A stretch of DNA of 55,601 bases, the filler included, from Basidioascus undulatus (taxonomy: Eukaryota), in NCBI GenBank assembly GCA_000826855.1. It is 4 parts of 4 records of this genome, joined end to end, with 100 filler letters (N's around TTAATTAATTAA, not from the genome) between each part and the next. Parts side by side here need not be neighbours in the genome. Positions count along the whole stretch, not along the records: positions 41,793 to 55,601 come from JTLS01000785.1; 3 more parts are not named here. One strand, written 5' to 3'. The first letter of the stretch is position 1, and each line of letters starts with the position of its first letter. The notes under the pieces were generated by a model that had not been told where the DNA came from, made no database searches, and worked only from the letters and a program-made list of their open reading frames with translations. Of this stretch, positions 13,838 to 55,601 are shown one piece after another. The position numbers were made by a program, and so were the translations under genes.

Positions 13838-13937
13838 NNNNNNNNNNNNNNNNNNNNNNNNNNNNNNNNNNNNNNNNNNNNTTAATTAATTAANNNNNNN
13901 NNNNNNNNNNNNNNNNNNNNNNNNNNNNNNNNNNNNN
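13838..13937. other. Artificial contig linker (N44-TTAATTAATTAA-N44)
   Basis: Six-frame stop spacer flanked by Ns; identical to the other two linkers. Confidence 0.97.
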
Positions 13938-17984: not shown

Positions 17985-20900
17985 ATGTCAACAAACGACA
18001 AACGCTTCTTTGCCCACGACGAGAAGCCTAAGGTCTTACATAACGACTATGTCACCGACCGCACGTCGGTCAGCTCGGGACAGGACAGCATTGCGCCGGA
18101 GCTGGGCGAGGAGACGATCCTGGCAGCTCGGGGACTGTACAAGGGCAAGCTGAGGGGGAGGGTCAGTATCTGTCGATTCATTCAGACAATATTACCGTTG
18201 AATACTGAGATGGGCATACAGAAATTGACGTTCGCAATCGCTGTGATTGCGGGTGTCGTGAGTAGTTTCACCTCAGCTGGCCCAACCCTCAGACTGACGT
18301 GCGCTCCGTCTTGATCAGGGCTTCACGCTGTTTGATAAGTGTAACTTTACGGCCACTTCCAGTTCTCGCAAGCTAACAGGCACTCGATTGCATTTCTCTA
18401 CGCTACGACCAGGGCGTGCTTTCTAGTCTGCTCAGGTACGAGTTTCTTATCGCTCGCCCATTGTTGCCTCCAAGTTCTCATTTGGGATGGCGGTCTACAG
18501 CACCAAGACGTTTGAGGAGACCTTCCCTCAAACCGTCTCTCCGGAAGGCGGCGAGCAGGACGGCCATGCAGCTACGCTGCAGTCCTTCCTCGTGTACGCG
18601 GATTTGTGAACCTGTCCGCAGCCAACCTACTGACGCTCCACGCTCTGCCGCGATACAGCGCCATCTACGAGCTCGGATGCTTAGCTGGTGCACTCAGTAA
18701 CTTGTGGGTTGGAGACCTGCTTGGTCGTCGGGTGAGTGGTATTTCGTTGCACAGGCGCGTCAAGGGGCGCTCACAGTCCCGTCTCGGTTCAGCACACCAT
18801 CTGCTTGGGCGGGGCAATCATGACCGTGGGAGCCATCCTGCAAACCGCGGCGGTCGACTACGCCATGATGCTGGTTGCGCGGGTTGTTACCGGTGTCGGC
18901 AACGGGTACGCAGCATCCTCCCTTCGAGAACGATCGGCGGGAGCCAAAGCTTGACCTACAATTTCTTGTACGACAGCCTTCTCACCTCCACAGTCCCTTC
19001 TTACCAGTCGGAGTGTGCGCATCCCGAGAAGAGGGGCAAGCTGGTCATGATTGAAGGCGTGAGTCTCAAAGCCAGTCGTTGACTGTCGCTCGACCAGTTG
19101 TACTGACCCTCCCCCTACTTTCAGGCCCTCATCACTTTCGGCATCATGATTTCCTACTGGATCGACTTCGGATTCTACTGGATTGATTCCAGCTCGATCC
19201 AGTGGCGTTTCCCTGTGTGCGTCATTTGCGCTGCGCGAGCCTAGTGGTTGGCATGGACTGACAGAGTGGTTGGCGATTCGATTGGGAACAGCGCTTTCCA
19301 AATCGTGAGCATACCTTACGTCTGTCAGAAGTGGTTTTAAACTCAAACACGACTGCTTTTTAAGGTCTTTGCAATCTTCATGATTGCCGGTATGTACGGC
19401 CTTCGTCTGCCGGAATCGCCTCGTTATCTCGTGCGTGTCGGCCGCAACGAAGAGGCTCTGGCGGTTCTTGCCGCGCTGGACGATGTCGAGTACGCCTATT
19501 TTGTCCCTTGCCATGTGATATATTTCCATTCTAACACTCCAATCCAGTGTCACAGACCAGCGTGTGGTTCAGGTTAGACCCCATCCTGCTGGTAAAGGCC
19601 AAGCATACATGCATGCTGACACTTCGCGCTTGCAACCTTCTCAGACTTGGAGGGGTATCTGCGACGTCGTGAACGTGGAGGACTCCCAGAAATTCTCTTT
19701 CGGTGAACTTTTCACCCACGGCCGCGGTCAGGTCAGCAATTTTTGCAATGGCTGAACGAGTCGGTCGAGGTCCTGGTACTGAAACCCTCTACGAACAGAA
19801 CTTCCGCCGTACTATTCTCGGCATCGCTGCGCAGGCCTTCCAGCAGGTCTGCCCTCAAAGTTGAAATTGCTCCTTGAAACCTCTTCACTGACGGCAGCTT
19901 TCGAAACCTTACAGCTCACGGGCATCAACTTGATCGTGCGCAAATTCCCTAACCTCATTACACGGCTCGGCGCTAACCTCTGAAAACGTCCTCCAGACCT
20001 ACTGTAAGCAACACCCCTCCGATCATACCGCACGATGCAACGCTTACGCCTACTCATACTCTACAGACGCCACTCTGCTCTTTGAGCGCCTCGACCTCGG
20101 CCCAACCAAGAGCCGCATCCTCTCGTCTTGCAACGGGACCGAGTACTTCCTTGCCTCGCTCGTCGGTGAGCCTTGATGTCTTTTGCATCTTCACATGATC
20201 CTCGCCCTAATCTGTGTCTATTCGACAGCTATCTATGTAATCGAGACTCTGGGTCGGAGGAAGCTCATGCTCGTCGGCGCTGTTGGCCAGTACGTTTCCA
20301 CTTCGCAATCCTTTCCGGGCTTGACCGAGTAATCTCCAGAGCGATCACGATGGGCCTCCTCGCTGCCTTGGACGCAACAAACACCCAGCCGGGCCGTTAC
20401 GTTTCTGCTGTAAGCCACTTCGACCCTCCAGAGCTTCTTCCCACCACGTAGTCCCGCTTATTCAACGGCGCGCATGCGAACAGGTGCTCCTCTTCGTTTT
20501 CAACTCGTAGGTTCGGTTGCCCTATTTTGGCGTCATTCTTCATTGTAGCTCACATTGGCTTCCTGAAGCTTCTTCGCCTTCGGCTGGTTGGGAATGACTT
20601 GGGTGAGTTTCCCACGTTACAGTCTTGCTGGCGGAACACTCACTGATTTTTACGTGCAGCTGTACCCTGCTGAAATTGTCGGCCTCCGGATTCGCCAACC
20701 CGCCAACGCCCTGTCCACCGCGAGCAACTGGATCTTCAACTTCTGTAAGCAAGCCCACCTGCATTCGGCCACCAATTCACGCACTTACAAGGGCTACTTT
20801 CAACAGTGGTCGTGATGATCACCGGCCCTGCGTTTGCGAACATCCAATGGGGCACCTACGCTGTGCGTTGTTCCCAAACTTGATGTTGTTTAAGCAAAGT

Positions 20901-27773: not shown

Positions 27774-27873
27774 NNNNNNNNNNNNNNNNNNNNNNNNNNN
27801 NNNNNNNNNNNNNNNNNTTAATTAATTAANNNNNNNNNNNNNNNNNNNNNNNNNNNNNNNNNNNNNNNNNNNN
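27774..27873. other. Artificial contig linker
   Basis: N44-TTAATTAATTAA-N44. Confidence 0.97.
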
Positions 27874-30764: not shown

Positions 30765-31345
30765 TCACGTTGGGTTTGTTTTCAGCTTCATTCAACACAT
30801 CTTGTATGGATCCCTATATTCTTTTTCCGCGCCTTGATTTTGAACACATACGATACCCTCATCATTTTCGACGCATTCATTCGCATTCTTGAGCAACTTT
30901 TTCGACACGCTGATCTTGCCCGCTCCCATGGAGTCTCTTCTTATTTGGGCTGTCGAATGCGGCAGTGGCGACAACTGGCTTTGTGGAACCACCTGAAGAA
31001 GTGCCAGAAGTGCCAGACGGAGCCACTTGCTTGTGCTTCATCTGATCGAAGGGATAAGATTTTTGATTTGTCTAGTTCGAGATGAAAGGAAGCCTAAACA
31101 AGTGGTCGGATGGTGCCGCGGTAATCGCGCTTTCTGTCATTTCCGAGCGTTCTCTTCAAGTGCTGAATCATACACCGCATCGAGAGGTTCCACACCCTGT
31201 ACACGGTTGCCGGTATGCGAGGCCCGGTTGGACTTGCGCGTCCTTTCCAATGCACACACTGAGCGACATGACATAAATCGTGCAAAGCATTCAACCCATA
31301 CACCCAAATAGACACTACATCATGATGAACGCCCAGTGCTCCACC

Positions 31346-34300
31346 TCAGCCGCAGAAAGCGTAGCCCGGGCAACCGACAGCCGAGCCATCTGTGGAAGAG
31401 CGGAAGACGTACCCATCAGTGCGGGAGTCAATATTTCACAGAAGATATAAAACGCACACTTAGATCCGTCGACCTCGAGGACGGCCAGCAAGGCGTTGAC
31501 GACACCGCCCATGCCCCTGCAGAATGTGCACTCAAGGTCAGTCCAGGCTTCGACTTGAACGGCTAAAGCAATGGGCACGCACTCTCCAGCGATCAAGCCG
31601 GCGGCCAGCGCAAATCCGAACCTGTTCCATAAAAGGTGAGCATCCTACACCTTCTAGCAGGCGAATGAGAACTAACATTTCGAAGCTCTTCGGGGCCCGC
31701 CATTGCCAGATCCACGCAGTGGAGGAGCCCGCCACCATCGCGATGGCGTAGTAGCATCCCGGGACGACAAAAGCGAGACCAACACTGTACACCAGCCAAA
31801 AAGAGTCAGCAGCGGGCGACGACAGCCGCGTTGGGAGCAGTAAACACACCTGTTCCAGTTCGGCATGTACTGTTGGTACTTCTTCGGAACAAAGAAATGC
31901 CTGATGTAGACCTTTTCAGGGAGTGTATGTATTAGTCAAGTGAAAGAGCGCAGCGCTGAAGAGGGTTCTCTTACCGAAGCGAAAGCGAGCACGCCGAACA
32001 TGATCGCCGTCACACCGCACGCAGTGGAAATTGGCAGCGACTTCTCGGTGACTGCTGTGGCGACCGCGACCCACGCGCCGATAGACGGCTGGAGAGTACA
32101 AAAGGTTAGCGAGGATCTCCGCGCAGGGAGTTATCAAGGTTCTCGCACAGCTCCGAAAGCGCAGCTGTCATTGTTTGGTTCAAGGATGCAGGGATCTAAA
32201 GTGGGCGTCAGAAGGAAAATTTTGCCCGCGTTGAAAATGGGGAGGCTTACAGGCCGAAGTAAAGAGGCAGAAAAGCCCAACGGAAAGGAAGATGGACACG
32301 ACGGCGCCGAGACATTGAGCCCAAAACTGGTGCTTCGGTTTGGCTCCCAACAGATGGCCGGTCTTCAAGTCGCCTGAAAAAAAATTTTGACACGGGTAAG
32401 GTTGCTTTCGTGAAAATCCACGTACTAGTCATGTCGCCAGCTTGCGCCGCTGCGGCAGCCGCGATGTTACCAGCGAGGAGGTTCTGGAGCAGGGCGGCAT
32501 CACCGTAAAGGCCTTGGCCTTTGGTCGCTCCCCCAACAATGAGTTGGGTGGCCTATAAGTTACAGTATGGGCGGTCTAAAGCTCAGTGGAACAACACAAG
32601 GCAGGCTGGTAGCTACGCACCTTTGCAGAGGTCGAGACTGGGTTAACCTATAAAGAAGGAGTTCGTCAGCGTTTCCAATTGTTGCATATGTGGGTCAGGC
32701 CTACATCCGTGGCACCGAGCGCTTGCACTGTCGAAGCGGCATGGATCAGTAATTGGTGGTACTTCATGATACTTCGCTCACTGACCGCCCATGAAGCTCA
32801 AGATGAATCCGAGAATGATGCTGAGGATGATGTTGCCGACGTTCATGTCTGTGAGACAAAACACGATAGATCAGCTTGTCGCACTTCCCACAGCTGTCGT
32901 AGTTGCGCAAAAGTGCGTACCGAATTGAATGTGAAGCACCACGATGGAGACCACGATTGACGCAACGACACCCACGACCCACTGCCACGTCGAGACGCGG
33001 TCTTCGGGGGCCGCTGCGTGTGTGTTTGTGTGTGTGTTAGACAGCGAAGCGGAAACAAATCGCTTGCTCCACTAACCTGGGTCGTGCAACATCTCTTCGC
33101 GCTCTTCGACGGTGCCGTCGTCGTGGACCTGTTGGGAGCGCCACTTTGAAATGATGTGCCGCGTTACAAGGCGAAGTCCGCGATAAACAGATGGAACTGT
33201 CAACGAGATCTCTGAATACACAATTTAGCGTCAGACTTTGCTACAATGGGAGACTTGGTCGGAATATGGCGCACCGGCGAAGGAGTACGCGACCCTGATG
33301 TCCCGACATTCTGCGGTGGTCAACGACAAGTCTCCAAGAATTAAGATTGTCTCATGCACGCACATGAGCATCACACCTGGCCACAGTAGCCAGTACCTGA
33401 ACCGGAAATTGTCAGCTCCCGTGAGTAGCAGATGTCGAAAAGCAAACAACATACCTAGGCGAAGGCGCGTTGACGGGGTCTTTCGAGCTCATAGAGAAGA
33501 AAGACCAGATGCGGGGATCGTCCTCGTCCTGGATTCCGACAGCCTGCTTGGTGTGGACGAGCAAAGGTCCCATCTGCGGCGAACGTGTGAGCGGAGCTGA
33601 CTTGAACGGTCTCTTCAAGACTTTGACGTACCACGCCCCAAGCGAGGAATGCCCCTCCGAAAAACGAGTAGCTGGTACACCGAAATGCTCAGACTCTGAC
33701 ACTCTACAAAGAAAGAAGGAATAGAGACGCACCTTGCATTGATGCCCGAGAGGATGCCGGCCCCAAAAAAGGCTGCAATCGCGCTTCAGCTGACGAGGAA
33801 CGACGAAAGGCTAAAAAAAGCATACCAGGTGTGAACTCAATGATCCAGCCCCAGGCGTCAATTCGCGCAGCATCTGAAGATCGCGTTGGAAATAGTCAGA
33901 TGCCAATGTCAGCAGTGGGAGAAATGAGCTATTGGAGCTTACAGTCAGCGCCGACTGCGGCGAGGTACCAGAAAATGTGGAAGTCCCAAAGCAGTCCAGG
34001 TGCCTGTGCAACGCGAACATTAAATTGTGCACTTTCAGGTAGGGATTATGACCTTCACTCACGTATCCCGAGACGACACGCAACGTAATGGCACCCAAGA
34101 AGGCGATGCCGAGGCAGGTTGCCTTAAGCTTCGCATCGCGGGCCCCGCTCGCTCCGCTCGAATGAAGGGAGCGGATAGTGTGTGCCGTGGCCGTCGGGGT
34201 TGGGAAAGTAAGCTTGAGAAGTAGGATGTAGCTATGACGGAGGAAGACGCGGAATCCCACAGATTGATCAGCCTTTACAACCCGCAGCAACACAACAACA

Positions 34301-35335
34301 GTGCCTTACTATTTGCGAAGAGGCAGCGAGAAGAAGACTCCGAAGAATGTGCTTCCAGAAAGGAAATTAACACGCATGGAACAAGAGTAATCGAGAACTC
34401 GGAATTTTACCAGGAGAGGGTGAAGGTGATGAGCCTACCGATGTCGTTCAACGGATTGAGGTTCTTGTCCATCAGGTTCAGCCGGTACATGGCGGGGATA
34501 CCGCTGACGAATACTGAGAGGCAAAATCAGGATTTGGCCGTTAACGCAGGCACCTGTCGTGGCTACTACGCACTGATACCCAATCCTCCAGCGGCAGTCG
34601 CGGCGGTTTGCACGGTAACATTTTCCTGCGGGGTCCCCAAACAATTCAGGACTGAAAACAGAGGCATGTTCAAGTTCCAAGCTTTACCTTCGGTCCAAAG
34701 TAGCCACCGCCCAACAGAGGCGGGAGCAACTTTGAAAGCGGTTTGATGATGGCGAACCCGAAGATGGCACCCTGCAGCCGACCCCTCCCATGAGCAGGCT
34801 GCTGTCCATACCTGAAAATGTGTTATCTCACGAAAAGGCAGGGAGAGAATGTGAATCCCGTCTTAAGGCCCAAGTAGATGTTGGAAGCGCCCACGACCGC
34901 TCCCAGAATCACACCCACCTGTGCGTGACTAAGATAATCAGCACAATACGCGAGTTTACCTGGAGGCAGAAACAATTCGTACGATGATCTGGAATTACGT
35001 AGGTGCGATCAGATACTAGCACGCGCAACCTTCTATCCGAGACTTTGACTCACAGCTCGGAAAGTGAAGGTGTTGACCTCCTCGGGAAGTCCCTCGATAG
35101 GCGGCAGCTGGTTGCCATCGTAGAGATCGCGAACCTCAGGGTCCTCGACTTGCACGGAGAACTCGCCGTCCAAGTTCGAGACGGCGAGCTCCGTCTTCTC
35201 ATCGGGAGTGGCAAGGGCAAGGTCCTTCTTTTCGTCGATGCTAGGCGTGTTGGCAGCGGACGCAGAGTCGTCGCCGCTCTGGCGGTTGAGTGGTTGATCG
35301 AGGATGGCCTCCTCAGGGCGCCCTGCAGAAGACAT
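31346..35335 (-). CDS. OPT superfamily (YSL-like) oligopeptide/metal-chelate transporter, 29 exons
   Basis: FTFRAIIVGVILGAVVGASNIYLGLKTG, FGPKENVTVQTAATAAGGL, KLTFPTPTATAHTIRSLH, GATDVNPVS, DMTSDLKTGHLLGAKP, AAGLIAGEGMGGVVNA; all introns GT-AG. Confidence 0.93.
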
Positions 35336-41692: not shown

Positions 41693-41792
41693 NNNNNNNN
41701 NNNNNNNNNNNNNNNNNNNNNNNNNNNNNNNNNNNNTTAATTAATTAANNNNNNNNNNNNNNNNNNNNNNNNNNNNNNNNNNNNNNNNNNNN
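41693..41792. other. Artificial contig linker
   Basis: N44-TTAATTAATTAA-N44. Confidence 0.97.
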
Positions 41793-42383: not shown

Positions 42384-43130
42384 ATGTCTTCTGGCATCAC
42401 CTCCGAACCCAGGGTTCTGCGCCTCCACCCTTGGCCGCATATCCCTAATCCTCATCCAAATGCACACCTTCACCGGCGCTTCGAGCCGCCGACGCCGAGC
42501 GCGACCCCGGAGGACGTCTTCTGGGAGAAACTGCGATCTACATCGACGGGGTCTCGCTCGGCAAAGGCTCCCCGGACGCGCGGGGTGGCTTCTCGGTCGT
42601 CTTCCGACCTGACCCAGAGGGCTCGGTCTTCAACGTCTCGGCGCGTCTCGAACGCGACGGGCAGACGTCGAACTGCGCCGAGCTCCGCGCAGCCATCGCG
42701 GCCCTCCAGCTCCGCGCGTGGTACGCCGAGGGCTTCTGGCGTGTCGTCCTCGCGTGCGACTCGGAGTACGTCGTCCTGGGCGCGTGTGGGCGCGCCAGGC
42801 TCTGGCGCCAGCATGGCTGGAGGACGACCAAGGGCGAGTCGATCACGAACCGGGATCTGTGGGAGCGGCTTATCGCCGAGCTGGAGCGCCACGAAAGGCA
42901 CCGCACCCAAGTCCAGTTCTGGCTCATTCCGAGGGCGCTCAACGGCGAGGCTGACGGACTCGCCAAAGCCGGCGCGGTGAGTGTCTTGTTTGAAATCTTC
43001 CTATGGAGGCAGTGCGACGTCCTTCGTATACTGCTTGCTGACGTTTCAACTGGGTTTCGACTTGGTGCAGGCGCTGCCCGGCTCGAAGGCTCACGGCGAG
43101 TTCACTCCCATGTATGCTATCCTTTGCTAA
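42384..43130 (+). pseudogene. Fungal RNase H1-like gene with an N-terminal frameshift
   Basis: RFEPPTPSATPEDVF is in the ATG frame. IYIDG, QTSNCAELRAAIAAL, ACDSEYVV, NRDLW and FWLIPRALNGEADGLAK are in another frame, which has an upstream TAA and no ATG. Confidence 0.75.
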
Positions 43131-45660
43131 CGGAGCGTTTAACCCAACTTCCGTCAAAAACAACTTCGAGGACCGATGATAGGCTTCCTATTCCAACCGT
43201 ATTGGTCGCTCGTAAGATCCTGGCCGTCTTTCGTTTGTCTGCACATGAATTTGCACTGCGTTGTGCCATCTGCTGGTCGCGCTTAGCCCTCTCTACGGAA
43301 CTCTTCGCTGTTTGACCTGCCCTTGCTGATGGTGAACTTGAAAATTCTATGGCGAAATATATGTTCTTGGGCTGGGGTGCCTTTCAGTTTGTTTCAGTTC
43401 CGAACGGGGAAAGACGGACCGTCTCGGTAGATTATCTCGTCTTGGAGCGTCCGCAGGTTGCCGAACGGCCATCCTCTCACCTCTCATACTCACGCTGTAA
43501 ATCAAGCGCGCAAGTATCTCCTTCTGCTCTACTTCAAAAGACTGTTCTACAGACATGAGCGCCAGCCCTCTTCCCGAGGATGACATCTCCCTTATCTTCG
43601 GCGTTCGCCACCGCCGGTACGGACGCGAAAGCCGCAGCGACCCGACGCGCTCTTCCACTCGTCTGCAAGAGACTCGATATAAGTTTCATGATCTGCAGAG
43701 ATGGCTAACCCTCTCCGAATAACCAACGAATGTAATTGCAGGCCCTCGCGCAACACGACCTCTTCGAGATGATTGCGCTGCGTGCGGTCCCTGCATTCGA
43801 TCGATCTGCTCTATCAGAACTTCCTTCAGTTGGAAGAGAATAGTTTTCCCACTGCTCAACGCGTTCGCGACCCAGCGTTTACATCCCCAAGGATTCATAC
43901 TCCGTGTCAGTCAGCTGGCTCGACTCGACTTCAATGGTCTCCATTCCCTCCTCACCCGCCTAAGCTCTTTGACTGTCTTGGAGACGATCACGAACTCTGT
44001 CCTTGTTGGGGCTATGAAGTTGGTCTGCAGACACTCGACACACTGAGCCGAAGCTGCGCTCTCAGCTTGAAGCCCAAATCGACGTGACGCAGACTGGCAG
44101 CCTCGGGGTGGCAAGAGCTGGGCTAGTCCTTTCGTTCTGACCAGATTCAAAAACCTTCGAGCGCTGGCCCTATCCTCGAACGGTGCGCGTTTACCAAGCG
44201 CCGAACCGTTGCCCATAGCTTTACCCCCAGTGGAGATTCTTGATCTCAACGACACCGTGACCAGGTAGTTGAGCAGCTCGTTGTAGTCGCAGGCGATCTT
44301 CGCTTCACTCCGCGTTTTGGCAATAAAACTAGAACCAAAACCTCCGCCACGTCTCATCGAGGTTCTTTCGACGTCATGGGATGAGCCTGGCGGAGCTCTC
44401 CGTCAAACTGCTCGCCAGCACTGCCCAGCTTTCTGCTGCTCTCGCAGCATACTACAAGCTTCACAAGCTCACGCTTCTCCGCAACCACCAACCAGTCTCA
44501 GCAAAGTTTGTTACCGCCTTGCCATCGGCACTGAAGTACATGACTCTCCACGTGCCCGACTCGTCCTCTAATTGCCGTGACTTGCTTGGAAGGTATTCTA
44601 ACCCCACTACGCACGGCGGGCCTAGAAACCCTCGAAACAGTTGCTCTGATACTCCTCTCATACCTTTTTTTTCCACTTGGGACACGGCGGACTCGACCTG
44701 GAGGGGTTGGGCATACGCCTGTGCGACGAGCAGCACAGAGTGCTTCGCGTGCTTAAACAGGTTGTCTAAAGACAGTGCCGAATGACCTTGCGGTGTTTTT
44801 GGGTTGAATGGGAGAACCTGACTTGCACTGAGAGTCTGACAAGCTGTGACCATGCATGCACGGAAGAGTCTACTACAGACTTATTTGCCTCTGTCATTTC
44901 TGTCCTTGATACCACCTGTAGTCGCTGTACTCTGTAGTGACCATTGCGTCCTTTGCACTTCTCACCGCCCTCAGTGGCTTCTGTGCCTTTCATCCATTAC
45001 CCATTGAGCATAAACCCATCTAATCGCAACTTCATTAACCTTTCATAACTCGAGTTCAATTCTCCATTGTGTGGGAGAAGCACCAGGGTCTGCGCGCAAG
45101 AATTCGGGGGCAGCGCTGTGACCCAGAGTGTTCAAGTTGGCCTCATTTTTTCTCGTACTTATCCATTGTCAGGCTTCCATTCAAGCGGCAGATGAACCAC
45201 TGCAATCTTCGAAATTGCGAGTTACATATGCGCCGTATATTCTCAAGTCCATCTCGACCTCACTTGGACGCCTCTTAACTTCCGGAAAGACTCGCCCAGA
45301 CTAAAATTATTTATGTTACATTTTCTTATAATTCAATGTAAGCTTGGCTGGGGTAGTGGTAACCTGGGTCGTTGCCATCGGATTTCGACCCGCCCCGTGT
45401 TCGATTCACGGGTCAAGCACATGATTTTTTTCTCAGCCAGTGAGACTGTTGTTGGACAATGGATACTCCAAAGGCATAATATAAGTAGGGCAAGCTCATA
45501 TTAACAAGTCACCGCAAAGTGTCTCTTGCAAAAAACAAATCATGCATGTAAACACGCGTCTTCCATGCGTGCGATGGCGGTTGAGCCGGTGGCCGGGTGT
45601 GCACAACCAAGTGACCTTCTGGTATGGGTTGAAAGAGCGGGCAAAACGTTTGAGGCTACT

Positions 45661-47289
45661 CTATTGGGACTTCCCAGCGCGCTCCTTTGGGGTCGCCTTT
45701 CTCGCTTCGGCCTGCTTCTTCCGGTACGCGTGGAAGTGAACGTCGGTGCCGAGCAGCAGTGCCCTGTGTAAGTCCACAAAGGTTTCTATCAGTGAGCAGC
45801 GGTATAACACGAGGTTGAACGGAAAACTTGTATACTGACACCACTGCAACATCCGCGAAGCCCGCCCGGTTGTCAGCTAAAGCGCGAGCACGAGCGGGAG
45901 CAGACGATATCGCACGCGGAAGTAAGAGGAGAAGCACTCGTGGAATTTCTCGTGGTGATAGTCGTCTGGAAGGGACATCTACCTGTCAGTCGCAAATTGG
46001 GACCTTGTAGGCTCAACGTCGAGCCTACGGTGATCAGCCCCGGCCCAGAACGGCAGGAACTTGTTCAACGACCACGGGAAATCGTAGCCACTGTGGGAGT
46101 CTAAAGAAAGCTTGAATCTGGACTTTGCCACCTGTAAGAGGGTTGAAGATAGTACTCACCGATGGCTTGGAAAAGCCGGAGAACGATCCACACATACATG
46201 GTGAGGATGTGCAGGTTGCCGGAAACCGCAGAGTACATAATCGGGCCCCCCACAGTCCCAAACCTAGTTAAACCGACTTCAATGGGTGAGCGTATTCGGC
46301 GCACTGAAGTATAAGCGAAATATTTCGTCCATGGGCCGTGTTAGTGGGGTTAAGCGAAGTAATCAGAGTAGGAAGACTCACGAGACCGAAAGGCGCAGAA
46401 TACTCATGATGGAGTTTGTGTACGTGCTTGTACAACGACGTGCTTGTACAACGGATGCCAATGGAGCATTCGATGTAATATGTAGTGCCAGAGGTCTTCG
46501 AAGACAAAGAAAATGGCAATCTGCCAGGCCATCGTCGAAATCGAGGGCAAGGGTAGCTGGTATGTCTTCATCCCAAAATGTTCGGCGATCCTGTGGGCAA
46601 TGCCCAAGAGAGCGTAGTCAGAATAAATTGGCAGAATTCATATCTGTTCAGGTTCGCGCTTGGGGAAAAGGACGCACGGATGGAAAGCCCAAATCTGGGG
46701 AAGCTCGATGGTCAAGTGCTGCAGAAGGACAAGTTTGGTGCAGCGCCACTGATCCCCAGGCGAGGGGACTTTGCCCTGGGGGACGTCGAACAGTTAGAAG
46801 TAGATCCGGATACTATGGATGTTATCCGTAGCCATGTGCAGGGGTGGATAAGGATAGGGAGACTAGGCGTACCGGCTGCAACTTGTACTTGCGGAAGAAA
46901 GGAATCGCGTCGATTATGATCCAAGGCAACGAGCGACCGAAATAAACAATCTGCGGGACCGAGTTATACAGTCAGACACTTGTTAGTTTGCCCCGGAGAA
47001 CTGACGCGAATTGGCAACCGAAAGGTCGAACCTCGTGCATCAGGAAGCTCATCATTCCTGTGGCGATGACGGGGTTGCCCCACCAGATGTAATATTGCGC
47101 CCAAAGGTTCTAATGCCGCAGAATACTTATCAACCCTTCCAGAACTTCCAAAAGTCTTTAAACGAGGAGGACGCACCTCGAACCAGTTAAGTCTGTCCAG
47201 ATCGATCCCCCCGTACAAGTCGGCGCCCTGCACCGCAAGCGGCTGGAAGTATGTCGACGTGTTGTCTGGAGACGAGCAAGCGTCTCCAT
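45661..47289 (-). pseudogene. ERG25: C-4 methylsterol oxidase with multiple frameshifts
   Basis: [76 protein letters not shown]. Lesions at about 47268, 46422-46453 (16-bp tandem duplication) and about 46280. Confidence 0.88.
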
Positions 47290-47636
47290 GGTGGTGTAGA
47301 CGGCTTGCTTGAATGCAATGCTTGGTCAGTGGTAATGGTTTGTGTCACGGAAAGAAATGTTGAAAGAGCCATGATGGGCTGCGGCCGTTCGACCGTGGCC
47401 TGATCGCCGGCAGCCACTGTGTCTCCCAGCCAGATTGCGGAGGCCCACCTCTGCCCCCTTATGTAATTTATTGTAGAATGTTCAGGGACACATTTACTTG
47501 GTCAGTGGTTTATGTAATAAAACATGCGAGTGATATAGTACTGTGCTCGCTGAGAGCGCAGAATCAGCCCATCTTGTACTGCAGCCTTTACGCGCGATAG
47601 CCGCTCGGCCGCAGAGGCTTTCTCCAACCCCCGTTT

Positions 47637-47646
47637 ATCATACGAT
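47637..47646. promoter_or_regulatory. SREBP/SrbA-type sterol regulatory element candidate (ATCATACGAT)
   Basis: Lies in the 517-bp ERG25/ERG3 divergent spacer and fits the fungal SREBP-type ATC-N5-AT element. Confidence 0.45.
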
Positions 47647-47806
47647 ACTGATATAGAAATTAGGCGAAGAAGGACCCCGAGAACGCATTGCGTTGATTCC
47701 TCTTCGACGCCCAGAAGTCTTCACGGCACCGTCTTCCATCGCCCTCGCTGATTCTCACTTACACCTTCACGTACCTCTTTTCTGTCGCCCCCCCCCACCC
47801 TTCTGG

Positions 47807-49212
47807 ATGGACACTGTACTGCAATTGGCCGACACCTACTTCCTGGATTGGGCGTGGGCGAGAATTCTCCCAGCGGCACCTTCACTCGCCTGCGCACGCT
47901 CCAACCTTCTCGCCGGCGCTGCCAATGCCGCAATTCGTCCCAGCCCACTCACGGGCAACTCCGCCCTTACTTACACCGCATCAGAGCCGGACTATATCAC
48001 GGGCGACCTTCATTCCCCATGAGAATATGCGAGCTCGCACGGGACAACATTTTCCGGCAGTTCGCGAGCTTGACTCTCCTCGTTTACGTTGGCATCCATA
48101 TCCTCTGTGCGTCTTCTTGTGTCTCTAGTTTATTCTAGCTGGAGGATAGGGTCTAAACAATAGACTATTTTGGGGTCAAGACTTCACCTGTGCCGGGGCG
48201 TCCTACTACCTCGTCTTCAACCACCACGTGATGAACCATCCGCGCTTCCTCAAGAACCAGGTCCAGCTCGATATTGCGGCGTCTATCCGCGCTTTCCTCC
48301 CGCTCACTCTCATGACCGTGCCATGGTTCGTGAGCGAGATTCGAGGACACTCTCTGCTGTACGAGCATGTGGACGAGTACAGCTGGGCGTACTTCTTCTT
48401 CTCCATCGTGTGGTTCATCCTCTTCACCGACTTCTGCATTTACTGGGTGCACCGCCTCGAGCATAGGCAGGAGGTTTACAAGTGGCTTCACAAGTGTGTT
48501 TTCTCTTCCTTTCGAATCCTCCTCGATTTATGGCTGAGCTCCTGACTCGATCGTCTCTCAGACCCCATCACAGGTGGCAAAGTGCGTGCATGTAGCGCAT
48601 TAGTGAGCAAGGAAGGCGCTGGCCTCATTGGACACTGACATCGTGGGTCTTTCATCTTCCACAGTCCCAACTCCATTTGGCGCCTACGCTTTCCACCCTC
48701 TCGATGGATATCTCCAGTCGGTGCCGTACCACCTCTTCGTCTACCTCTTCCCACTGCACAAATACCTCTACCTCGGCCTCTTTGGCTTCGTCAACCTGTG
48801 GACCATTATGGTCAGTCTTCCTCCTTCCTCCTTTTCCACTGCTGGCTGGACCGTTTATTCCATTTCGTATAGATCCACGACTCCGACATGATCTGCGGTT
48901 ACTCGCCCGAGAAGGTGATCAACGGCCCCTCGCACCACACACTGCACCACCTGTTCGTCGTTCTTCCCTTCCCGCTGACCTCTCGCAGGCGTCTTACATT
49001 CCCGACTTAACATGCTGTTTCGGTCAAGATACTTTACGTGCAATTTTGGCCAGTACTTCACATTTAGTGACCGCATGTTTGCGTCCTACCGCCAGCCCGA
49101 GAAGAGCCTCGATCTCATGCTCGAGGTCAGAGCGCTCATGGCGAGCAAGGCGAAAGCCGAAGACGGGAACGCGATAGAAGGCGGCCAGTCCGACTCAAAA
49201 AAGTTGAATTAG
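47807..49212 (+). CDS. ERG3: C-5 sterol desaturase; exon 1 apparently frameshifted (possible pseudogene)
   Basis: [96 protein letters not shown]. The ATG 47807 frame stops at 48020-48022. Confidence 0.9.
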
Positions 49213-51747
49213 ACCGTCAAATCGTAAGTATGCTTGCCTTGGCTCCTTCAGATTCCTCCACGCGCTGATCTTGCGCTGAAGCGTCTCTTTCAACTTCCTC
49301 TCCCGCAGCAGCTCTTTCTCTCCAGGAGCCTCTTCCTTAAATCGTATTATTTGCTCTTTCCCTGCAGGATCGCTTCAAAAAGCACATGTGTATATTCCCC
49401 ACCTCACCACACCGTTTTCCAATGCGCTAGCTGCTACACATGACAGAAAGATAGTTCGCATCGCGATGAAGATTTTCGGGATGCTGGCCGTTGACTGAAT
49501 GAGACGCGAAACAAGCTGAACGAGCTCCCTCAAGGTCTATACTCAAGATGTTCTTCAGCAGGGAAAGCCAAAATTATTTCGATAGTCCTGAACGTATAAG
49601 TCGGAAGTACAAACAAAAAAGCCAGTTGCGATCCTCCGCAACTGATTTGACGAAAGTCCCCGTCTTTTCGGACCATATCCTAAGTCTAGCGCCTCAGACC
49701 GCTGAGGCATCTCAGCAACTATAGAAGTAATGAAAGAAGTCATTGGACTAGAAGCTTGAGTTGCATGCAGCGGTCAGCAATCTCAAGCGTCTGGCTGTCC
49801 GGTGCTTCACTTTCGATGCCGCGAGCGCAGACTCGCACCTGGGCATGCCAAGCCTCACGCATTTGTTTGTCATGAATAAGGTTTCCGACCATATTACTGG
49901 ATTCCAGAAGATCAGCCAGTTCGCCAAATTTGTTACCCTTTCGCCGACGCTGCAGAGGGTCATCTTTGGGATCATCCACCCGCCTGAGTGGAACACGGCA
50001 CCGATTTGCAGGCTCTCAAGGATGATTTCCTGAGCCAAATGAAAACACTTGTACCCCCTTCCATTTCCCAAAAGTTGCAGTCCTATTGTGGGGCGTATTC
50101 GGTGGCGATAGAGACGAGGACTCCTGGTTAACCGACCGGGTCGTCGACGGGGCGCTTTGGGATGGAGGAGTAGGGTGATGGGAGCTTAGGAAGCTTTGGA
50201 GGGTGAAATGCTAAGAACGAGGTAGGAATATTATTTAGCTGCTATTTTGTGATGCGAGAATGCACCTCGAATAGAATGTTGATGTACGCAGCACCACCGG
50301 AGTTCAAATGTGTTGTCGACTCACATGGGGCCGCAATACGCTGTAAGCGTTAAACTCGCAAGATTAGCAGCAATACCTTCGCCTCGGCAAAATTTCGATG
50401 TTTCTCTTATGTGCTCCTGCTGGGTGCATGCAGTTGCCCGAGGAACTGCAATCACTCTCAAAAGCTTGCAGAGGTCTCAAGTAAGGACCTGCGACAGGCC
50501 CAGGTTGTTCAAGCCCACCTATGGCAGGCCCCAACAGACTGAAGCTCTTGTAAGCTCCCTTGAAGACTGAACTACCACAAAGCGCTTTACACGGAAGCTG
50601 CCCTGCGCAGCGCAATGACCGGCGCAGAAGTACTCAGTGCCGCGAAGTATGTCGCGACCTCGGTCGAAAGTCCAGGCCCCTATAAGAACTACGGAATGGC
50701 ATGGGCAGGACACCGTAGGTGCAGTAAGCTGACCGGCTCGCACACCTTGTCGGTTCTCGCGGCGTGCTGCTGACGTTGCGCGAAGTTCACATCACCACTT
50801 TCAAAGCTGAGCTGTATTGCCGCGTGCTAAGCCGCCAGAAAACAAGCTTAAGTATTTTACAGGAACTCGGACGGTTTCCAATCCAGCATCGAGATAGCTT
50901 TCTCGAGAACCGTTGTTCTCTGAACAACCTCCAGCGTCTCGACTAGCCTGCAGGCTCCCTGCTTCTTTCGTTGCTCTTCACGAATGGCAGATCAAGAACG
51001 AGTGTCCTGTTGGAGATGGTGCTCATCCCAATCTTTCTTCGCTGATAGGAAAACCGGCCTAGGTCCCGAGTGCCCAGTCCGACATTTTCCGCCTCGCAGT
51101 ATTGCACTGCCCTCGCGAATTGCAAGGCCATTTCTTCCTCCTTTTGGCTTAGACTGAACTCAAGATTTCAGGAGCTTTTTCAAGGCCCGAAAGTGCTGTT
51201 CCCGGCCTATGCTTGGTGGGTGTTGTCACTGGCACTTACATCGCAACCAGCCCCGCGGCGTCTTTCGCCCTCTTAGACCTCCCCTGTGAATGTACGGGCT
51301 TTTACCAGGCTTGTTGTAGCGTGTGTAATAGTGCTGATTGGTGGGTGGAAAGCTTCTGAAAGACGCGGCCAAGATCAGCCCACGGCTGTGCAAGGCATGC
51401 TGGGCCGAAACCCTTCGCACATCCGAAACTGCAGCTGGTCCGATAGTTCCGCAGAATAGCGCTCTCATGTCGGCCTGAAAATGCACTTGCATCATGCATG
51501 TTCACATGAGGCAATTTACGGATACTCTTTGCGGTCCATGCGAAGGCTCTACTTCCCGTAAAGGATAACGGAAAAGAAAAAGAGGCCTGAAACACCGGAA
51601 GAGGAGCGCGGGCACTCCCGGCTTCCCAGCAGCGCGGGCGCCGGATGCGCTTTGATCGCCCCGCGCTGGCAATATCAAGTCCGCGCCTTGTTCCTTGTTC
51701 CTCCCTTCTCCCACCATCTCACTTACCCTCTCACCGAGCCGCTTTAC

Positions 51748-52102
51748 CTGCCCAGCCTACGAACGCTTATTTGCGCTGTAAGTCCATCGACTCTGCGGAC
51801 ATACTCGTAATCCTACTCACGCTCGCTGTGGCTGTGCAGCTCAGCGTTAACAACCCTCTCGCTCTCACCTCCCCAGGTTTATGTTCTCCAGGTTCGTCAT
51901 CCCTCTGAGATCAGTGACATCGCTCGATGGATACTCATGCTCCGTTGGGCGCTACAGGGGTCTCAAGAGTCCTCACAACTCCCACGGTTCGTCGACGAGC
52001 GCGCTTTTTCATCTGGCAAACTGAAGGCGATGCTGACGATGTTCTCGACGGACCACAGCTGGTCAACACACCGAGGCGTGCTGCTGCTTAGCCTTCTTCT
52101 AA
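51748..52102 (+). CDS. Spliced non-AUG upstream ORF of INO1 (candidate regulatory peptide)
   Basis: Exons 51748(or 51763)-51777, 51840-51876 and 52059-52102 give (LPSLR)TLICALSVNNPLALTSPAGQHTEACCCLAFF*; no in-frame ATG. Confidence 0.6.
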
Positions 52103-52160
52103 ACGTCTCCTCGTTGCGCTTTATCCTTTACTACACCAAAAAAACACAAAAATATATACA

Positions 52161-54350
52161 ATGGCACCCGTCGCTACCAACACTTTTTACACGAACGGCC
52201 ACGCCGCCGCGTCCTCGCCCTTCGCGGCCGAGCTGTCCCCGCAGCCCGTTCACGCGACGGCGGCGCGCCGTGCGACGACGCTCACCGTCGACTCGCCCGA
52301 CGTGAGCTACACCGAGGAGGCTATCACAGCGAAGTACGAGCACCGCGGCGCACGCGTCGACCGTGACGGCGACAAGATCAAGGTCACGCCGACGGCTAAG
52401 CAGTGGGAGTTCAAGACCGCCCGCAAGGTCGGCAAGACAGGGTCAGTCCTTCCTTACTTTCTGGTCCGCATTGGGAACCACGGTCGGCTTATGCCTTATG
52501 CATTGGCAACGTTAACAGTCTCATGCTTGTCGGCCTCGGCGGCAACAACGGCACGACGCTCGTCGCGACCGTGCTTGCCAATAGGCACAACGTGTCGTGG
52601 CGCACCAAGACCGGCATTCAGACGCCCAACTACATGTGCGTATCTGCCTTTTCGAAAACCCGCATAGTGTGCACAGCTCAATCGTATCGCCCCACAGCGG
52701 CTCGGTCACGCTCGCTTCGACCGTCCGTCTTGGCTCTGACGCCGCGGGCAACGACGTCAACGTTCCTTGGACCGATGTTCTCCCGATGGTCCACCCGAAC
52801 GACCTCGTCCTCGGCGGCTGGGACATCTCGAGCGCTCCGCTCGACATCGCCATGCGCCGCGCCGAGGTCCTCGACTGGGACCTTCAGCGCCAGATCGCGC
52901 CGCTGATGGCCGAGTACAAGCCGCTGCCGTCGATCTACGTGCGTCCTTCCTGCGCTCTTTTCGAGGGTGCGGCCTTTGTTGACATGCGTCTCATACGCTA
53001 CCACAGTACCCCGACTACATCGCGACCAACCAGTCCGAGCGCGCCGACAACGTCCTCGACGCGAAGGAGTACCCGACCAAGCAGTCGCACGTCGAAAAGA
53101 TCCGTAAAGACATCCGCGAGTTCAAGGCCGCGCACGGGCTCGACACGGTCGTCGTCTGCTGGACGGCCAACACGGAGCGCTTTAGCTCGGTCGTCCCCGG
53201 CAAGACGGACACGCCCGAGAACCTGCTCAAGAGCGTCGAGGAGTCGTTCGAGGAGATCAGCCCGTCGACCATTTTTGCCATTGCCTCCATCTTCGAGGGC
53301 GCCCCCTTCATCAACGGCGCGCCGCAGAACACGTTCCTCCCCTCGGTCGTCCGCCTCGCCGAGCAGAAGAAGTCATTCATCGGCGGTGACGACCTCAAGA
53401 CTGGCCAGACGAAGGTCAAGGTGTGTCGTCTTTCCCTTAATGTGCTTCGCCTCCCGCCCACTTCCTGACTACGATTTTGTGCACGCCAGTCGGTCCTCGC
53501 CGAGTACCTCGTCAACGCTGGTATCAAACCGCTCTCGATCGCGTCGTACAACCACCTGGGCAACAACGACGGCCACAACCTCTCCGAGGACCCGCAGTTC
53601 AAGAGCAAGGAGTGAGTCCCCGCCACAACATGATGGTTCCCGCGGCGTCGGCGGTGTCTCTGACCTCACTTCTTGCGCAGGATCACCAAGCGCAGCGTCG
53701 TTGACGACATGGTAGACGCTAACCGGCTGCTCTACAAGGAGGCCGACAAGTCCAAGGGCGAGAAGAAGGGCGAGCACCCTGACCAGTGCGTTGTCTCGCT
53801 GCATTCCCCTTGCGCCGAATCGGAGTCTGAACGAGCGCCCCATTTACAGCATCGTCGTGATCAAGTACCTCCCGGCTGTCGGCGACGACAAACGTGCCAT
53901 CGACGAGTACAACAGCGAGATCATGATGGGCGGCCGCAACGTCCTGTCGATCTTCAGTGCGTTTGCTGTCCCTCTCGCCACCCGCTTCTCTTCCGCCTTC
54001 GTTACCCGCGCCACCGATGTCTAACCCGACTTTCTCCTGTCACAGACATGTGCGAAGACTCGCTGCTCGCGACGCCCCTCCTGCTCGACCTCACGATCTG
54101 GACGGAGCTCTTCACGCGCGTGACGTACCGGACCGCGAGCGAGGGCAAGAAGGACGTGGAGGGCGACTTCCAGCAGCTGCACAGCGTACTCTCGCTCCTG
54201 TCGTACATGCTCAAGGCGCCGATGACCAAGCCCGGCAACGAGGTGGTCAACTCTCTCGGCCGTCAGCGCAACGCGATGGAGGCATTCGTGAAGGCTTGCA
54301 TTGGCCTAACCCACTCGAACGACCTCAACCTTGAGTCGCGCACCAACTGA
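52161..54350 (+). CDS. INO1: Myo-inositol-1-phosphate synthase
   Basis: [89 protein letters not shown]. Confidence 0.97.
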
Positions 54351-55024
54351 GCTGGCCGCGCTGTCGCCAGCGCCAGCTCCATCAGCAGCACCGTTTCCTT
54401 TTTCCCCTCTTCTTGATTATGTTCGCCGCGGCTTTGGATGCCTTGCACATTGTAGCCTTCGCTCGGTAGAGTCACGATAGATCAGCTGCTGTCATCTTGA
54501 CTTTCTTGTGTGCGTCGCCTGAGCATGATAAGGTTGTCGGGAAAGCGTTGATGCCGAGGGGAACGACGTCTGAGGAGGAACAGACGTCGGAATGTAAGGA
54601 CGCGGCAAGTTCTACCGAGGTCAAGAGAACTTGGGGAGACCGTCAGACCGAGCGATATGCATCTTCCAGCCGGAGTGTAGTCGATGCTGCGGACTCGCTG
54701 TACAAGCGACGCGGCCGACGCTGACTGCCGACCGCTCTTCCCTGACTTCGTAACTCGCGGAAACACACATATCTGCAAAGCGCGCGTACACTGGAGATGC
54801 CCAGAGCGGAGCGGAACGTGCAGCGGTCAATGAAAGGGCGGGTGACAGAGACGGTACCGCAGGTGGAAGCTGCTGTGGTATCTTTCTTCTCTGAAACTCG
54901 CTTTTTACCTTCAAGACAGGGTTACGTTCTTCCCATCCGCCTCCCACAGCCCGCTCCTCCGCCCGCGCAATCCAGCGCAGCCAGTCCACTCCCCATGCGA
55001 CGATGCAAAGCAAGCAACCCCCAT

Positions 55025-55050
55025 CCATGCATCCATGCATCCATGCATCT
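55025..55050. repeat. 8-bp tandem repeat (CCATGCAT)x3
   Basis: ccatgcatccatgcatccatgcatc, in the 3' UTR region of TMA64. Confidence 0.7.
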
Positions 55051-55090
55051 ATCCGTCGTCCCAGCGCTCTCCCTCGCCCTCGCCCAACCC

Positions 55091-55601
55091 TCACTTCTTC
55101 TTCCCCCCCCCATCCAGCTCGATCCACCTGCGCGGGACGCCCTTGGACACGAGCAGGCGCTCGACAACGCGCGTCTGGTCGCCCTGCGCGGAGACTTCGA
55201 GTTCTTTGGGCGCGCCGGTCACGGGGTTCACTGGGGGTTTGAGGTGGGTTTGGTTAGCCATTGCGACGTCGGATCGCCGGGGGAGAGTAGGGGTGGGAAG
55301 TGGAGAAGATTCGGAAGTGAGGGGGAGGGAAGGAGGAGAAGACGAACCCGAAGTAGACGACGCGCAAACATGCTTGAGCTCCGCCGCGAGCGCGTCGGGC
55401 GCCAGCCCAAACGTCTCGAACGGCCCGCGCACGTGCGTCGTCACTTTCCTGCCTTGGCGCTGCTTGATGGAGAGGTGGAAGGGGGTTGGGCGGCCTTTGC
55501 TGCTCACATCCCCCATTCCCATCGCCAACAAAGCCGTCGCATCAGCCTTCGTCGCACAAAGGAATTGGGGAGGGGGGGCAGGAGCTGGGCGACGCTTTGG
55601 G
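55091..55601 (-). CDS. TMA64: eIF2D/Tma64 C-terminal SUI1 domain (5' part outside window)
   Basis: IKQRQGRKVTT..FETFGL..LAAELKHVCASSTS, EVSAQGDQ, KGVPRRWIE. Confidence 0.85.
   Translation of the reverse strand, partial: PKRRPAPAPPPQFLCATKADATALLAMGMGDVSSKGRPTPFHLSIKQRQGRKVTTHVRGPFETFGLAPDALAAELKHVCASSTSGSSSPPSLPLTSESSPLPTPTLPRRSDVAMANQTHLKPPVNPVTGAPKELEVSAQGDQTRVVERLLVSKGVPRRWIELDGGGKKK

Follow-up and report, generated by a model that had tools for sequence, protein, structure and literature searches.

A head-to-head ERG25/ERG3 sterol gene pair in Basidioascus undulatus with a frame-disrupted ERG25 copy

Introduction

Are the two ergosterol genes that stand head to head on one contig of the fungus Basidioascus undulatus a pair in decay, the last copies in a lineage that is losing the pathway, or intact genes that were misassembled? 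The genes in question, ERG25 (C-4 methylsterol oxidase) and ERG3 (C-5 sterol desaturase), are located in a window of 55,601 bases, by which we mean the whole stretch of DNA analysed here (assembly GCA_000826855.1). The window consists of four pieces (13,837, 13,836, 13,819 and 13,809 bases) without physical linkage between neighbours, separated by N44-TTAATTAATTAA-N44 linkers (13838-13937, 27774-27873 and 41693-41792), and the pair resides entirely within the fourth contig (41793-55601, JTLS01000785.1). A first-pass annotation had described both genes as damaged and had offered two explanations, a decaying duplicate of a co-regulated sterol mini-cluster or the only copies in a lineage losing ergosterol synthesis.

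In Saccharomyces cerevisiae, ERG25 and ERG3 are found on different chromosomes, and a literature search judged by titles and abstracts retrieved no report of a head-to-head ERG25-ERG3 pair. In B. undulatus, the ATG of ERG25 (47289, minus strand) and that of ERG3 (47807, plus strand) lie on either side of a 517-bp divergent spacer (47290..47806). The identities, strands, start codons and spacer length given in the first-pass annotation were right, and the stop codons at 45661-45663 and 49210-49212 match the limits that it had drawn. We find that the ERG25 copy as assembled is broken by three frame changes, that ERG3 carries one frame change in a non-conserved linker and that the nearby INO1 gene is intact.

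Results

ERG25 is recognisable and, as assembled, broken in three places

The minus-strand gene (45661..47289) is a disrupted gene for an ERG25-type C-4 methylsterol oxidase that was modelled as 10 exons (47289-47177, 47109-47032, 46950-46873, 46775-46678, 46590-46382, 46303-46160, 46100-46029, 45965-45916, 45843-45836 and 45763-45661), the last of which ends in a TAG stop codon (45661-45663). The nine introns, of 59-97 nucleotides (nt), are all GT-AG with recognisable branch sites, and the length of ~310 codons is that of the family. An exhaustive representative search with the 51-residue exon at 46437-46589 returned 80 proteins at E<=0.001, while a word-index homology search with the same 51 residues gave one candidate and none that was scored. 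One match of this exon, P0152, is 100% identical to an Alternaria methylsterol monooxygenase over 98% of residues 59-280; among the matches listed for P0152 itself, those with names are methylsterol monooxygenases or ERG25 C-4 methyl sterol oxidases and the others are unannotated proteins of the FA-hydroxylase family. When read through with an X at each break, the translation aligned with named ERG25 proteins at 59-66% identity over 247-304 residues (E ~1e-118 to 1e-124). The three histidine boxes (HRMLH, HKLHH and HHDYHH) are all present and aligned with those of the relatives, and they are spread over three DNA reading frames. No in-frame stop codon occurs within any exon of ERG25 or ERG3. 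In a Pfam scan confined to single-exon open reading frames (ORFs), those of ERG25 had no match to FA_hydroxylase (PF04116) at E<=0.01 and pieces of ERG3 reached 22.8 and 17.3 bits against a cut-off of 31; the homologues retrieved with ERG25 and ERG3 exons carry PF04116.

The spliced ERG25 model has no single open frame from ATG to stop. The at least three frameshifts of the first-pass annotation are borne out: three breaks persist after removal of the nine introns, and introns are excluded at these breaks because the flanking conserved residues are only 0-26 nt apart. At the first (47264..47289, minus strand), the ATG (47289-47287) and the conserved N-terminus NTSTYFQ (47263-47243) are in different frames, in keeping with a one-base deletion in the first 8 codons; the 26 nt between them leave no room for an intron. 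An upstream start exon was considered and rejected, with only four candidates that would require introns of 182-288 nt and poor donors (GTAAAG or GTCCCT). At the second (46421..46453, minus strand), 16 bp of exon 5 are duplicated exactly in tandem, which shifts the frame by +1. Tandem Repeats Finder delimited the duplication to 46422-46453 (period 16, 2.0 copies, 100% match, score 64), in agreement with an independent repeat search, and it doubles the LYKHV codons just before the HKLHH box such that the LYKHV peptide is encoded twice, in two frames. The third (46283..46286, minus strand) is a change from AEYAH(P) to (P)IEV within a C run of exon 6, where AEYAHP (46283-46300) and PIEVGL (46269-46286) share bases and are read in different frames, which fits the loss of one base in the C run.

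Two further sites in ERG25 are ambiguous. Three-frame translation of exon 6 and alignment with the family drew attention to possible further lesions at 46263..46274 (minus strand), where four codons read GLTR in place of x-x-L-G in relatives while the neighbouring frame yields L-G over the same bases; a pair of +1/-1 slips in runs of A and T would fit this pattern. At exon 9 and intron 9 (45764..45843, minus strand), both donor choices were translated: the non-consensus donor GTATAC (45835) keeps the frame and yields FRWCQ, whereas the consensus donor GTCAGT (45839, 4 nt upstream) restores the FRWW of the family and puts the last exon out of frame, possibly as a fourth frameshift. When an open frame was forced by splicing only, a path existed solely by cutting out conserved exons. 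Introns behind every frame change were rejected at four sites; they explain the other 14 changes of frame in ERG25 and ERG3.

ERG3 is a basidiomycete-type desaturase with a single frame change

The plus-strand gene (47807..49212) is an ERG3-type C-5 sterol desaturase gene, identified by tblastn, alignment and tree, with six exons (47807-48106, which contains the frame change, 48181-48493, 48562-48581, 48665-48810, 48873-48952 and 49029-49212) and a TAG stop codon at 49210-49212. Its five introns are 62-83 nt long with donors that are all GTNNGT, and the exon at 48562-48581 is a micro-exon of 20 nt that carries part of the HKPHH histidine box. The segment 48165-48494 matched 127 of 150 candidate proteins at E<=0.001 with a best identity of 63%, the named matches being sterol delta-5,6-desaturase, C-5 sterol desaturase and lathosterol oxidase, and all 10 query proteins tested by tblastn matched 48183-48494 and 48664-49128 or beyond. 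The boxes HRLEH, HKPHH and HHTLHH are complete, and the N-terminal helix MDxVLxxADxxxLDxxWA and the ARDNIFRQ motif are conserved.

The closest proteins are from basidiomycetes (Meira, Polyporales and Wallemia); identity does not exceed 63% over the largest exon or 59% over the whole protein, and ERG3 is without a close relative among the full-length proteins (>=194 residues) searched. In a tree of 58 rows built by a quick method, the gene falls inside the basidiomycete group as sister to the Wallemia clade, with a Shimodaira-Hasegawa-like approximate likelihood ratio test (SH-aLRT) support of 96. The same tree places a Pezizomycotina ERG3-like clade (Fusarium, Clonostachys, Lecanicillium, Xylariales and others) within Tremellomycetes (Saitozyma, Cryptococcus and Vanrija) with SH-aLRT of 95-99, and this nesting may reflect an old inter-phylum transfer of an ERG3 paralogue. 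We also observed that 22 nt of ERG25 intron 6 (46122-46143) match the ERG3 micro-exon (48562-48583) at 86% when each is read in the direction of its transcript, with a core of 14 identical bases, a similarity that we estimate to be about chance level for a contig of 13.8 kb.

The single shift in exon 1 that had been noted for ERG3 was recovered by frame and splice analysis in the non-conserved N-terminal linker (47903..48021, plus strand). The frame of the ATG contains the conserved N-terminus and stops at 48020-48022, while the frame of the core (from ARDNIFRQ onward) is open across the entire linker, as is everything downstream, and the switch can be placed anywhere in 47903-48019 without constraint from homology. 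The sole homopolymer of at least four bases in this zone, CCCC at 48015-48018, is directly followed by an ATG (48019-48021) in the core frame. The sole GT in the zone is at 47937, and the 48-nt intron that it would form with a good acceptor at 47984 leaves the wrong frame. A 50-nt intron (GTCCCA...GAG) would mend the frame with splice sites that are both poor; an alternative cryptic intron of 131 nt (47854-47984, GTGGGC...CAG) opens a frame of 303 codons, but the conserved WARILP segment is removed with it. Barring either of these introns or a start at 48019, no single open frame extends from the conserved ATG. Most simply, ERG3 has one lesion, a one-base slip, and a shortened ERG3 may still be expressed. 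The description of both genes as damaged thus holds for ERG25 and was overstated for ERG3, with its single change in a non-conserved linker followed by an in-frame ATG, its cryptic splice option, canonical splice sites and full set of boxes.

The frame damage is local to the pair

INO1 (myo-inositol-1-phosphate synthase; 52161..54350, plus strand), located 3 kb from ERG3, served as an intact control. Its eight exons (563 codons), identified by Pfam and by mapping on structures in the PDB, form an open spliced frame with seven introns that are all GTNNGT...CAG and a G+C content at third codon positions (GC3) of 0.90. Exons 2-5, 7 and 8 map on 1jkf_A at residues 68-105, 107-186, 187-329, 330-369, 400-432 and 435-531, free of gaps except at split junction codons; the sole match of exon 6 is to residues 354-375 of 9f2k_A (E 0.099), after exon 5 at 313-352 of the same chain. 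Across 1692 coding nt, INO1 contains 41 homopolymer runs of at least three bases (nine of at least four) and no break, compared with 85 such runs of at least three bases and four breaks in the 1996 nt of ERG25 and ERG3. Under uniform placement over ERG25, ERG3 and INO1, all four breaks would fall in the ERG genes by chance with a probability of 0.086. Since the neighbouring INO1 is intact, the frame damage is local to the ERG pair and not contig-wide.

Five additional multi-exon models (5418 nt) from a home-made gene finder also read open with canonical introns, which lowers the chance figure to 0.002, a value that is biased because these models were picked for having no frameshift edge and were used without validation by homology. 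The gene finder is composition-based and includes frameshift edges; it reproduced INO1 exactly and started ERG3 at the ATG at 48019. Its output is taken as weak support, as the finder is blind to genes of low GC3 (ERG25 and the transporter genes were missed), calls antisense ORFs and equipped 5 of its 32 models with unverified frameshift edges close to their ends.

Signs of relaxed constraint

The pair also shows signs of relaxed constraint other than the frame breaks. Near the C-terminus of ERG25, the segment F-H-E-C-F...F-R-W-C-Q replaces the F-x-G-N-Y...F-R-W-W-D of the family, in which the G, the N, the second W and the D are each present in at least 95% of 77 full-length ascomycete ERG25 rows; the distant P0170 likewise keeps G-N-Y and W-D. 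Splice donors depart from GTNNGT in five of the nine ERG25 introns versus none of the 12 introns of INO1 and ERG3 combined (Fisher p=0.006). Among the 72 ERG3 columns with at least 95% conservation, the B. undulatus gene departs at 5. Of the 57 relatives compared, 30 differ at none of these near-invariant columns, 17 at one, four at two and three at three; the remaining three, with 6-8 changes, are Lipomyces and two Kickxellomycotina, and the sister Wallemia clade has 1-2. Apart from Lipomyces, the B. undulatus gene has the most such changes among the Dikarya rows.

The shared spacer contains one SREBP-type motif

The divergent spacer contains a single SREBP/SrbA-type motif, ATCAGGCCAC, on the minus strand (47395-47404), which precedes the ERG25 ATG by 115 nt. 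The pattern RTCABSCCAC has two matches in the window compared to a mean of 1.2 in shuffled sequence; the second, ATCAGCCCAC at 51374-51383 (plus strand), precedes the INO1 ATG by ~790 nt. The seven patterns tried besides the SREBP type revealed no TATA, CCAAT, E-box or Upc2-type site in the spacer. In a study of Aspergillus fumigatus, the SrbA motif is given as (A/G)TCA(T/C/G)(C/G)CCAC and SREBP (SrbA) is reported to bind directly to the promoters of erg25A, erg25B and erg3B (PMC4223079). The one spacer motif is a weak lead towards the co-regulated ERG25/ERG3 mini-cluster that had been proposed, and joint control of the two genes would be a prediction from this motif.

Surroundings of the pair

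The window is eukaryotic DNA of ~57% G+C with many short introns, and G+C is lower (~52%) across roughly 9 kb around the pair (43.3-52.2 kb). The flanks at 43301-45340 (~2 kb) and 49213-52160 (~3 kb), also ~52% G+C, yielded no Pfam match for their ORFs of at least 38 residues and may consist of lineage-specific genes, decayed genes or long intergenic DNA. A scan for further sterol or cluster genes with 71 ORFs of 38-74 residues (41.8-42.5, 43.3-45.3 and 49.2-52.2 kb) returned no Pfam family. Among 101 ORFs of at least 75 residues in 40.8-55.6 kb, a range that includes the whole contig, Pfam recognised RNase H, the FA_hydroxylase pieces of ERG3, INO1 and SUI1, in addition to weak, sub-threshold matches to PagL and TGT. 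Neither repeat-induced point mutation (RIP) nor CpG depletion was detected over the pair (CpG observed/expected 0.97-1.01, TpA/ApT 0.71-0.81, with similar values in the flanks).

An Rfam scan of the window identified no family at the gathering score. ARAGORN called a 79-nt tRNA-Gly(GCC) at 45342-45420 (plus strand), 240 bp past the ERG25 stop, which had no Rfam tRNA match even at E<=10 and may be spurious, or else a tRNA that is degenerate or contains an intron. The RNase H-like ORF (42449-43312, plus strand, 288 codons; Pfam RNase_H E 4e-14 over a nearly full profile) is without a methionine, so that its start must be sought in an upstream exon or else the gene has suffered truncation or damage; it could encode a cellular RNase H1 or be the remnant of a retroelement. 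A (CATCCATG)n / (CCAT)n microsatellite is located at 55021-55054 near the SUI1 (eIF1) gene (55091-55516, minus strand). Elsewhere in the window, an OPT oligopeptide transporter gene (31300-35000, minus strand) and a sugar transporter gene (18700-20300, plus strand) are made up of very short exons of low GC3; their fragments have a GC3 of 0.61-0.70, below most other genes of the window, and the Pfam matches on the tiny exons are patchy.

Discussion

Our preferred reading, held with moderate confidence, is that a redundant ERG25 copy has recently become a pseudogene, that ERG3 is freshly hit or still usable and that a working ERG25 is present elsewhere. Taking the lesions as biological, as we infer them to be, a basidiomycete-like fungus with a divergent ERG25/ERG3 pair would here carry a genuine and fairly young ERG25 pseudogene that has sustained at least three independent mutations, namely one-base slips and a 16-bp duplication by replication slippage, of which an exact tandem duplication is the classic product. 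Translation would end within the first few codons, with further terminations ahead of two histidine boxes, and therefore no active di-iron oxidase would be expected from this copy. Since ergosterol synthesis requires C-4 demethylation, the genome most likely encodes a working ERG25 at another locus, and the copy described here would be a redundant paralogue in decay. The hit in ERG3 would be the later event: the gene would either have been newly disabled by the one-base slip in its linker or still yield protein by way of the in-frame ATG at 48019 or the cryptic splice. As the introns have been kept (nine and five, GT-AG), each gene is a genomic copy rather than a retro-copy and, if dead, the two would be duplicated or unitary pseudogenes. 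Any decay would be recent, since the read-throughs are still 59-66% (ERG25) and up to 59% (ERG3) identical to proteins of other classes or phyla and the exons are free of in-frame stops.

Several observations weigh against this preferred reading. All one-base lesions can be placed in or beside homopolymers (the G after the ERG25 ATG, the C run of exon 6 and the CCCC of ERG3), and homopolymer indels are a signature of sequencing error as well; likewise, a short exact duplication can arise at a contig join or during gap closure by an assembler, and the assembly is fragmented, with contigs of ~13.8 kb here that look like successive entries of a draft sorted by length. A second ERG25 or ERG3 was not found in the remaining 41 kb of the window. 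As to relaxed constraint, the donor contrast weakens to p=0.026 when the unvalidated gene models are included and to 0.09 with the consensus donor for intron 9, and the 17 of 126 conserved columns at which ERG25 deviates were defined on an ascomycete-only reference against which comparators that are not ascomycete-like, and may be basidiomycete, score similarly (12 of 87 and 8 of 55). At 0.73 and 0.77, the GC3 values of the pair are lower than those of INO1 and of several other genes (0.80-0.98) and higher than those of the transporter fragments; as they are inside the range of the other genes in the window, codon usage does not mark the pair as decaying, and GC3 was rejected as a marker of decay. 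Similarly, the end branch of ERG3 in the tree is long (0.62 versus a median of 0.19), but the sister clade is equally long (a stem of 0.51 plus tips of ~0.15-0.2) and an acceleration in rate was rejected.

Much of this evidence would be accommodated if the genes were intact in the organism and the lesions a local artefact of sequencing or assembly, with homopolymers miscalled or mis-polished and the duplication introduced at a join or gap closure, or perhaps with two similar copies or haplotypes collapsed at the pair. We regard such an artefact as possible, though the less probable account. It would explain why the read-throughs are well conserved, with exons free of in-frame stops and histidine boxes all present, why all five ERG3 introns are canonical and why the GC3 of the pair is unremarkable; it sits less easily with INO1, which is unbroken despite its 41 homopolymer runs, and with the five further open models, to the extent that models selected for the absence of frameshift edges and lacking homology validation can speak to this. 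Moreover, indel errors leave the substitutions in G-N-Y and W-W-D and the weak ERG25 donors unexplained. That programmed frameshifting, RNA editing or unusual splicing allows expression in spite of the broken frames is very improbable: the cryptic 131-nt intron or the ATG at 48019 offers such a way out for ERG3 only, while ERG25 would need at least three separate events, including the skipping of 16 duplicated bases, at sites where no intron fits, and its splice-only path costs conserved exons.

The alternatives that take the lesions as real and dispense with a paralogue appear improbable to us. In a dikaryon or diploid, the damaged copy could be a null allele confined to one haplotype, with a working counterpart at this locus in the other nucleus. 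Basidiomycete genomes are often sequenced from dikaryons, an essential gene can retain a recessive allele with several lesions only under such masking, and young lesions in otherwise conserved genes would be in keeping with this; against it, there is no sign of heterozygosity in the window, and an allele with several independent lesions must have been masked for long, for which a paralogue would account just as well. Slightly less likely still, the two genes would be the only ERG25 and ERG3 copies of an unsampled basidiomycete lineage (its nearest ERG3 being Wallemia-like, at 59%) that is at an early stage of losing de novo ergosterol synthesis, with ERG25 dead, ERG3 just hit and sterols scavenged or the end sterol altered. 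Both members of the sterol pair are indeed hit, no other copy is present within the 55 kb, and the isolation of ERG3 (best identity of 63%, on one exon) suits such a lineage. However, ERG25 is essential wherever ergosterol is made, ERG25 and ERG3 are too well conserved for long disuse, the apparent absence of a paralogue pertains to 55 kb of the genome only, and the sterol auxotrophs among the publications listed by a literature search are oomycetes, not basidiomycetes. Between the two explanations of the first-pass annotation, the decaying duplicate is favoured over sole copies only on the signs of relaxed constraint and on priors, namely the essential role of ERG25 in ergosterol producers and the frequency of ERG25 and ERG3 paralogues among fungi.

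Relative to the ERG25 family (methylsterol monooxygenases of the FA-hydroxylase superfamily, PF04116), the B. undulatus copy has retained typical identity, length and histidine boxes and differs by its frame breaks, by E-C-F/W-C-Q in place of G-N-Y/W-W-D and by five of nine donors off consensus. Relative to ERG3 (lathosterol oxidase, SC5D), the resemblance on the largest exon, the N-terminus, ARDNIFRQ and the three boxes contrasts with a change of frame that separates the conserved N-terminus from the core and with the changes at near-invariant columns. A study of CYP51A and azole sensitivity in Calonectria boxwood blight pathogens uses the word "pseudogene" 11 times, and its abstract refers to previous work on an ergosterol biosynthesis gene of one of the species (PMC8430531); it may offer a precedent for a disabled extra ergosterol gene, although in a different enzyme and a different phylum. 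Redundant sterol paralogues are also known from the excerpts available for A. fumigatus, with Erg25A/B and Erg3B (PMC4223079), and for Candida, with ERG251 (PMC11315318), whereas the "ERG25 family" of six in Trametes, as excerpted, denotes FA-hydroxylase proteins in general (PMC13522498). The locus described here resembles the A. fumigatus and Candida sets in having what would be a redundant sterol paralogue, next to a spacer with one match to the SrbA motif; those paralogues are intact and, in the same excerpts, not described as adjacent, whereas here two enzymes share one 517-bp spacer and one copy would be dead.

What the locus means depends on which explanation applies. If the lesions are artefacts, this draft would contain local indel errors that cause two core ergosterol genes to be missed in gene calling. 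If the copies are unique, B. undulatus would be a sterol-dependent basidiomycete that scavenges sterols from a host or partner and is intrinsically insensitive to azoles and polyenes, with a bearing on antifungal targets. If, as we favour, the lesions are real and the ERG25 copy redundant, the locus would provide a clean and datable case of a dying sterol-pathway paralogue that has kept its introns, its histidine boxes and ~60% identity to distant relatives while its frame was broken at least three times, and the head-to-head ERG25-ERG3 layout could mark a duplicated, jointly regulated sterol module.

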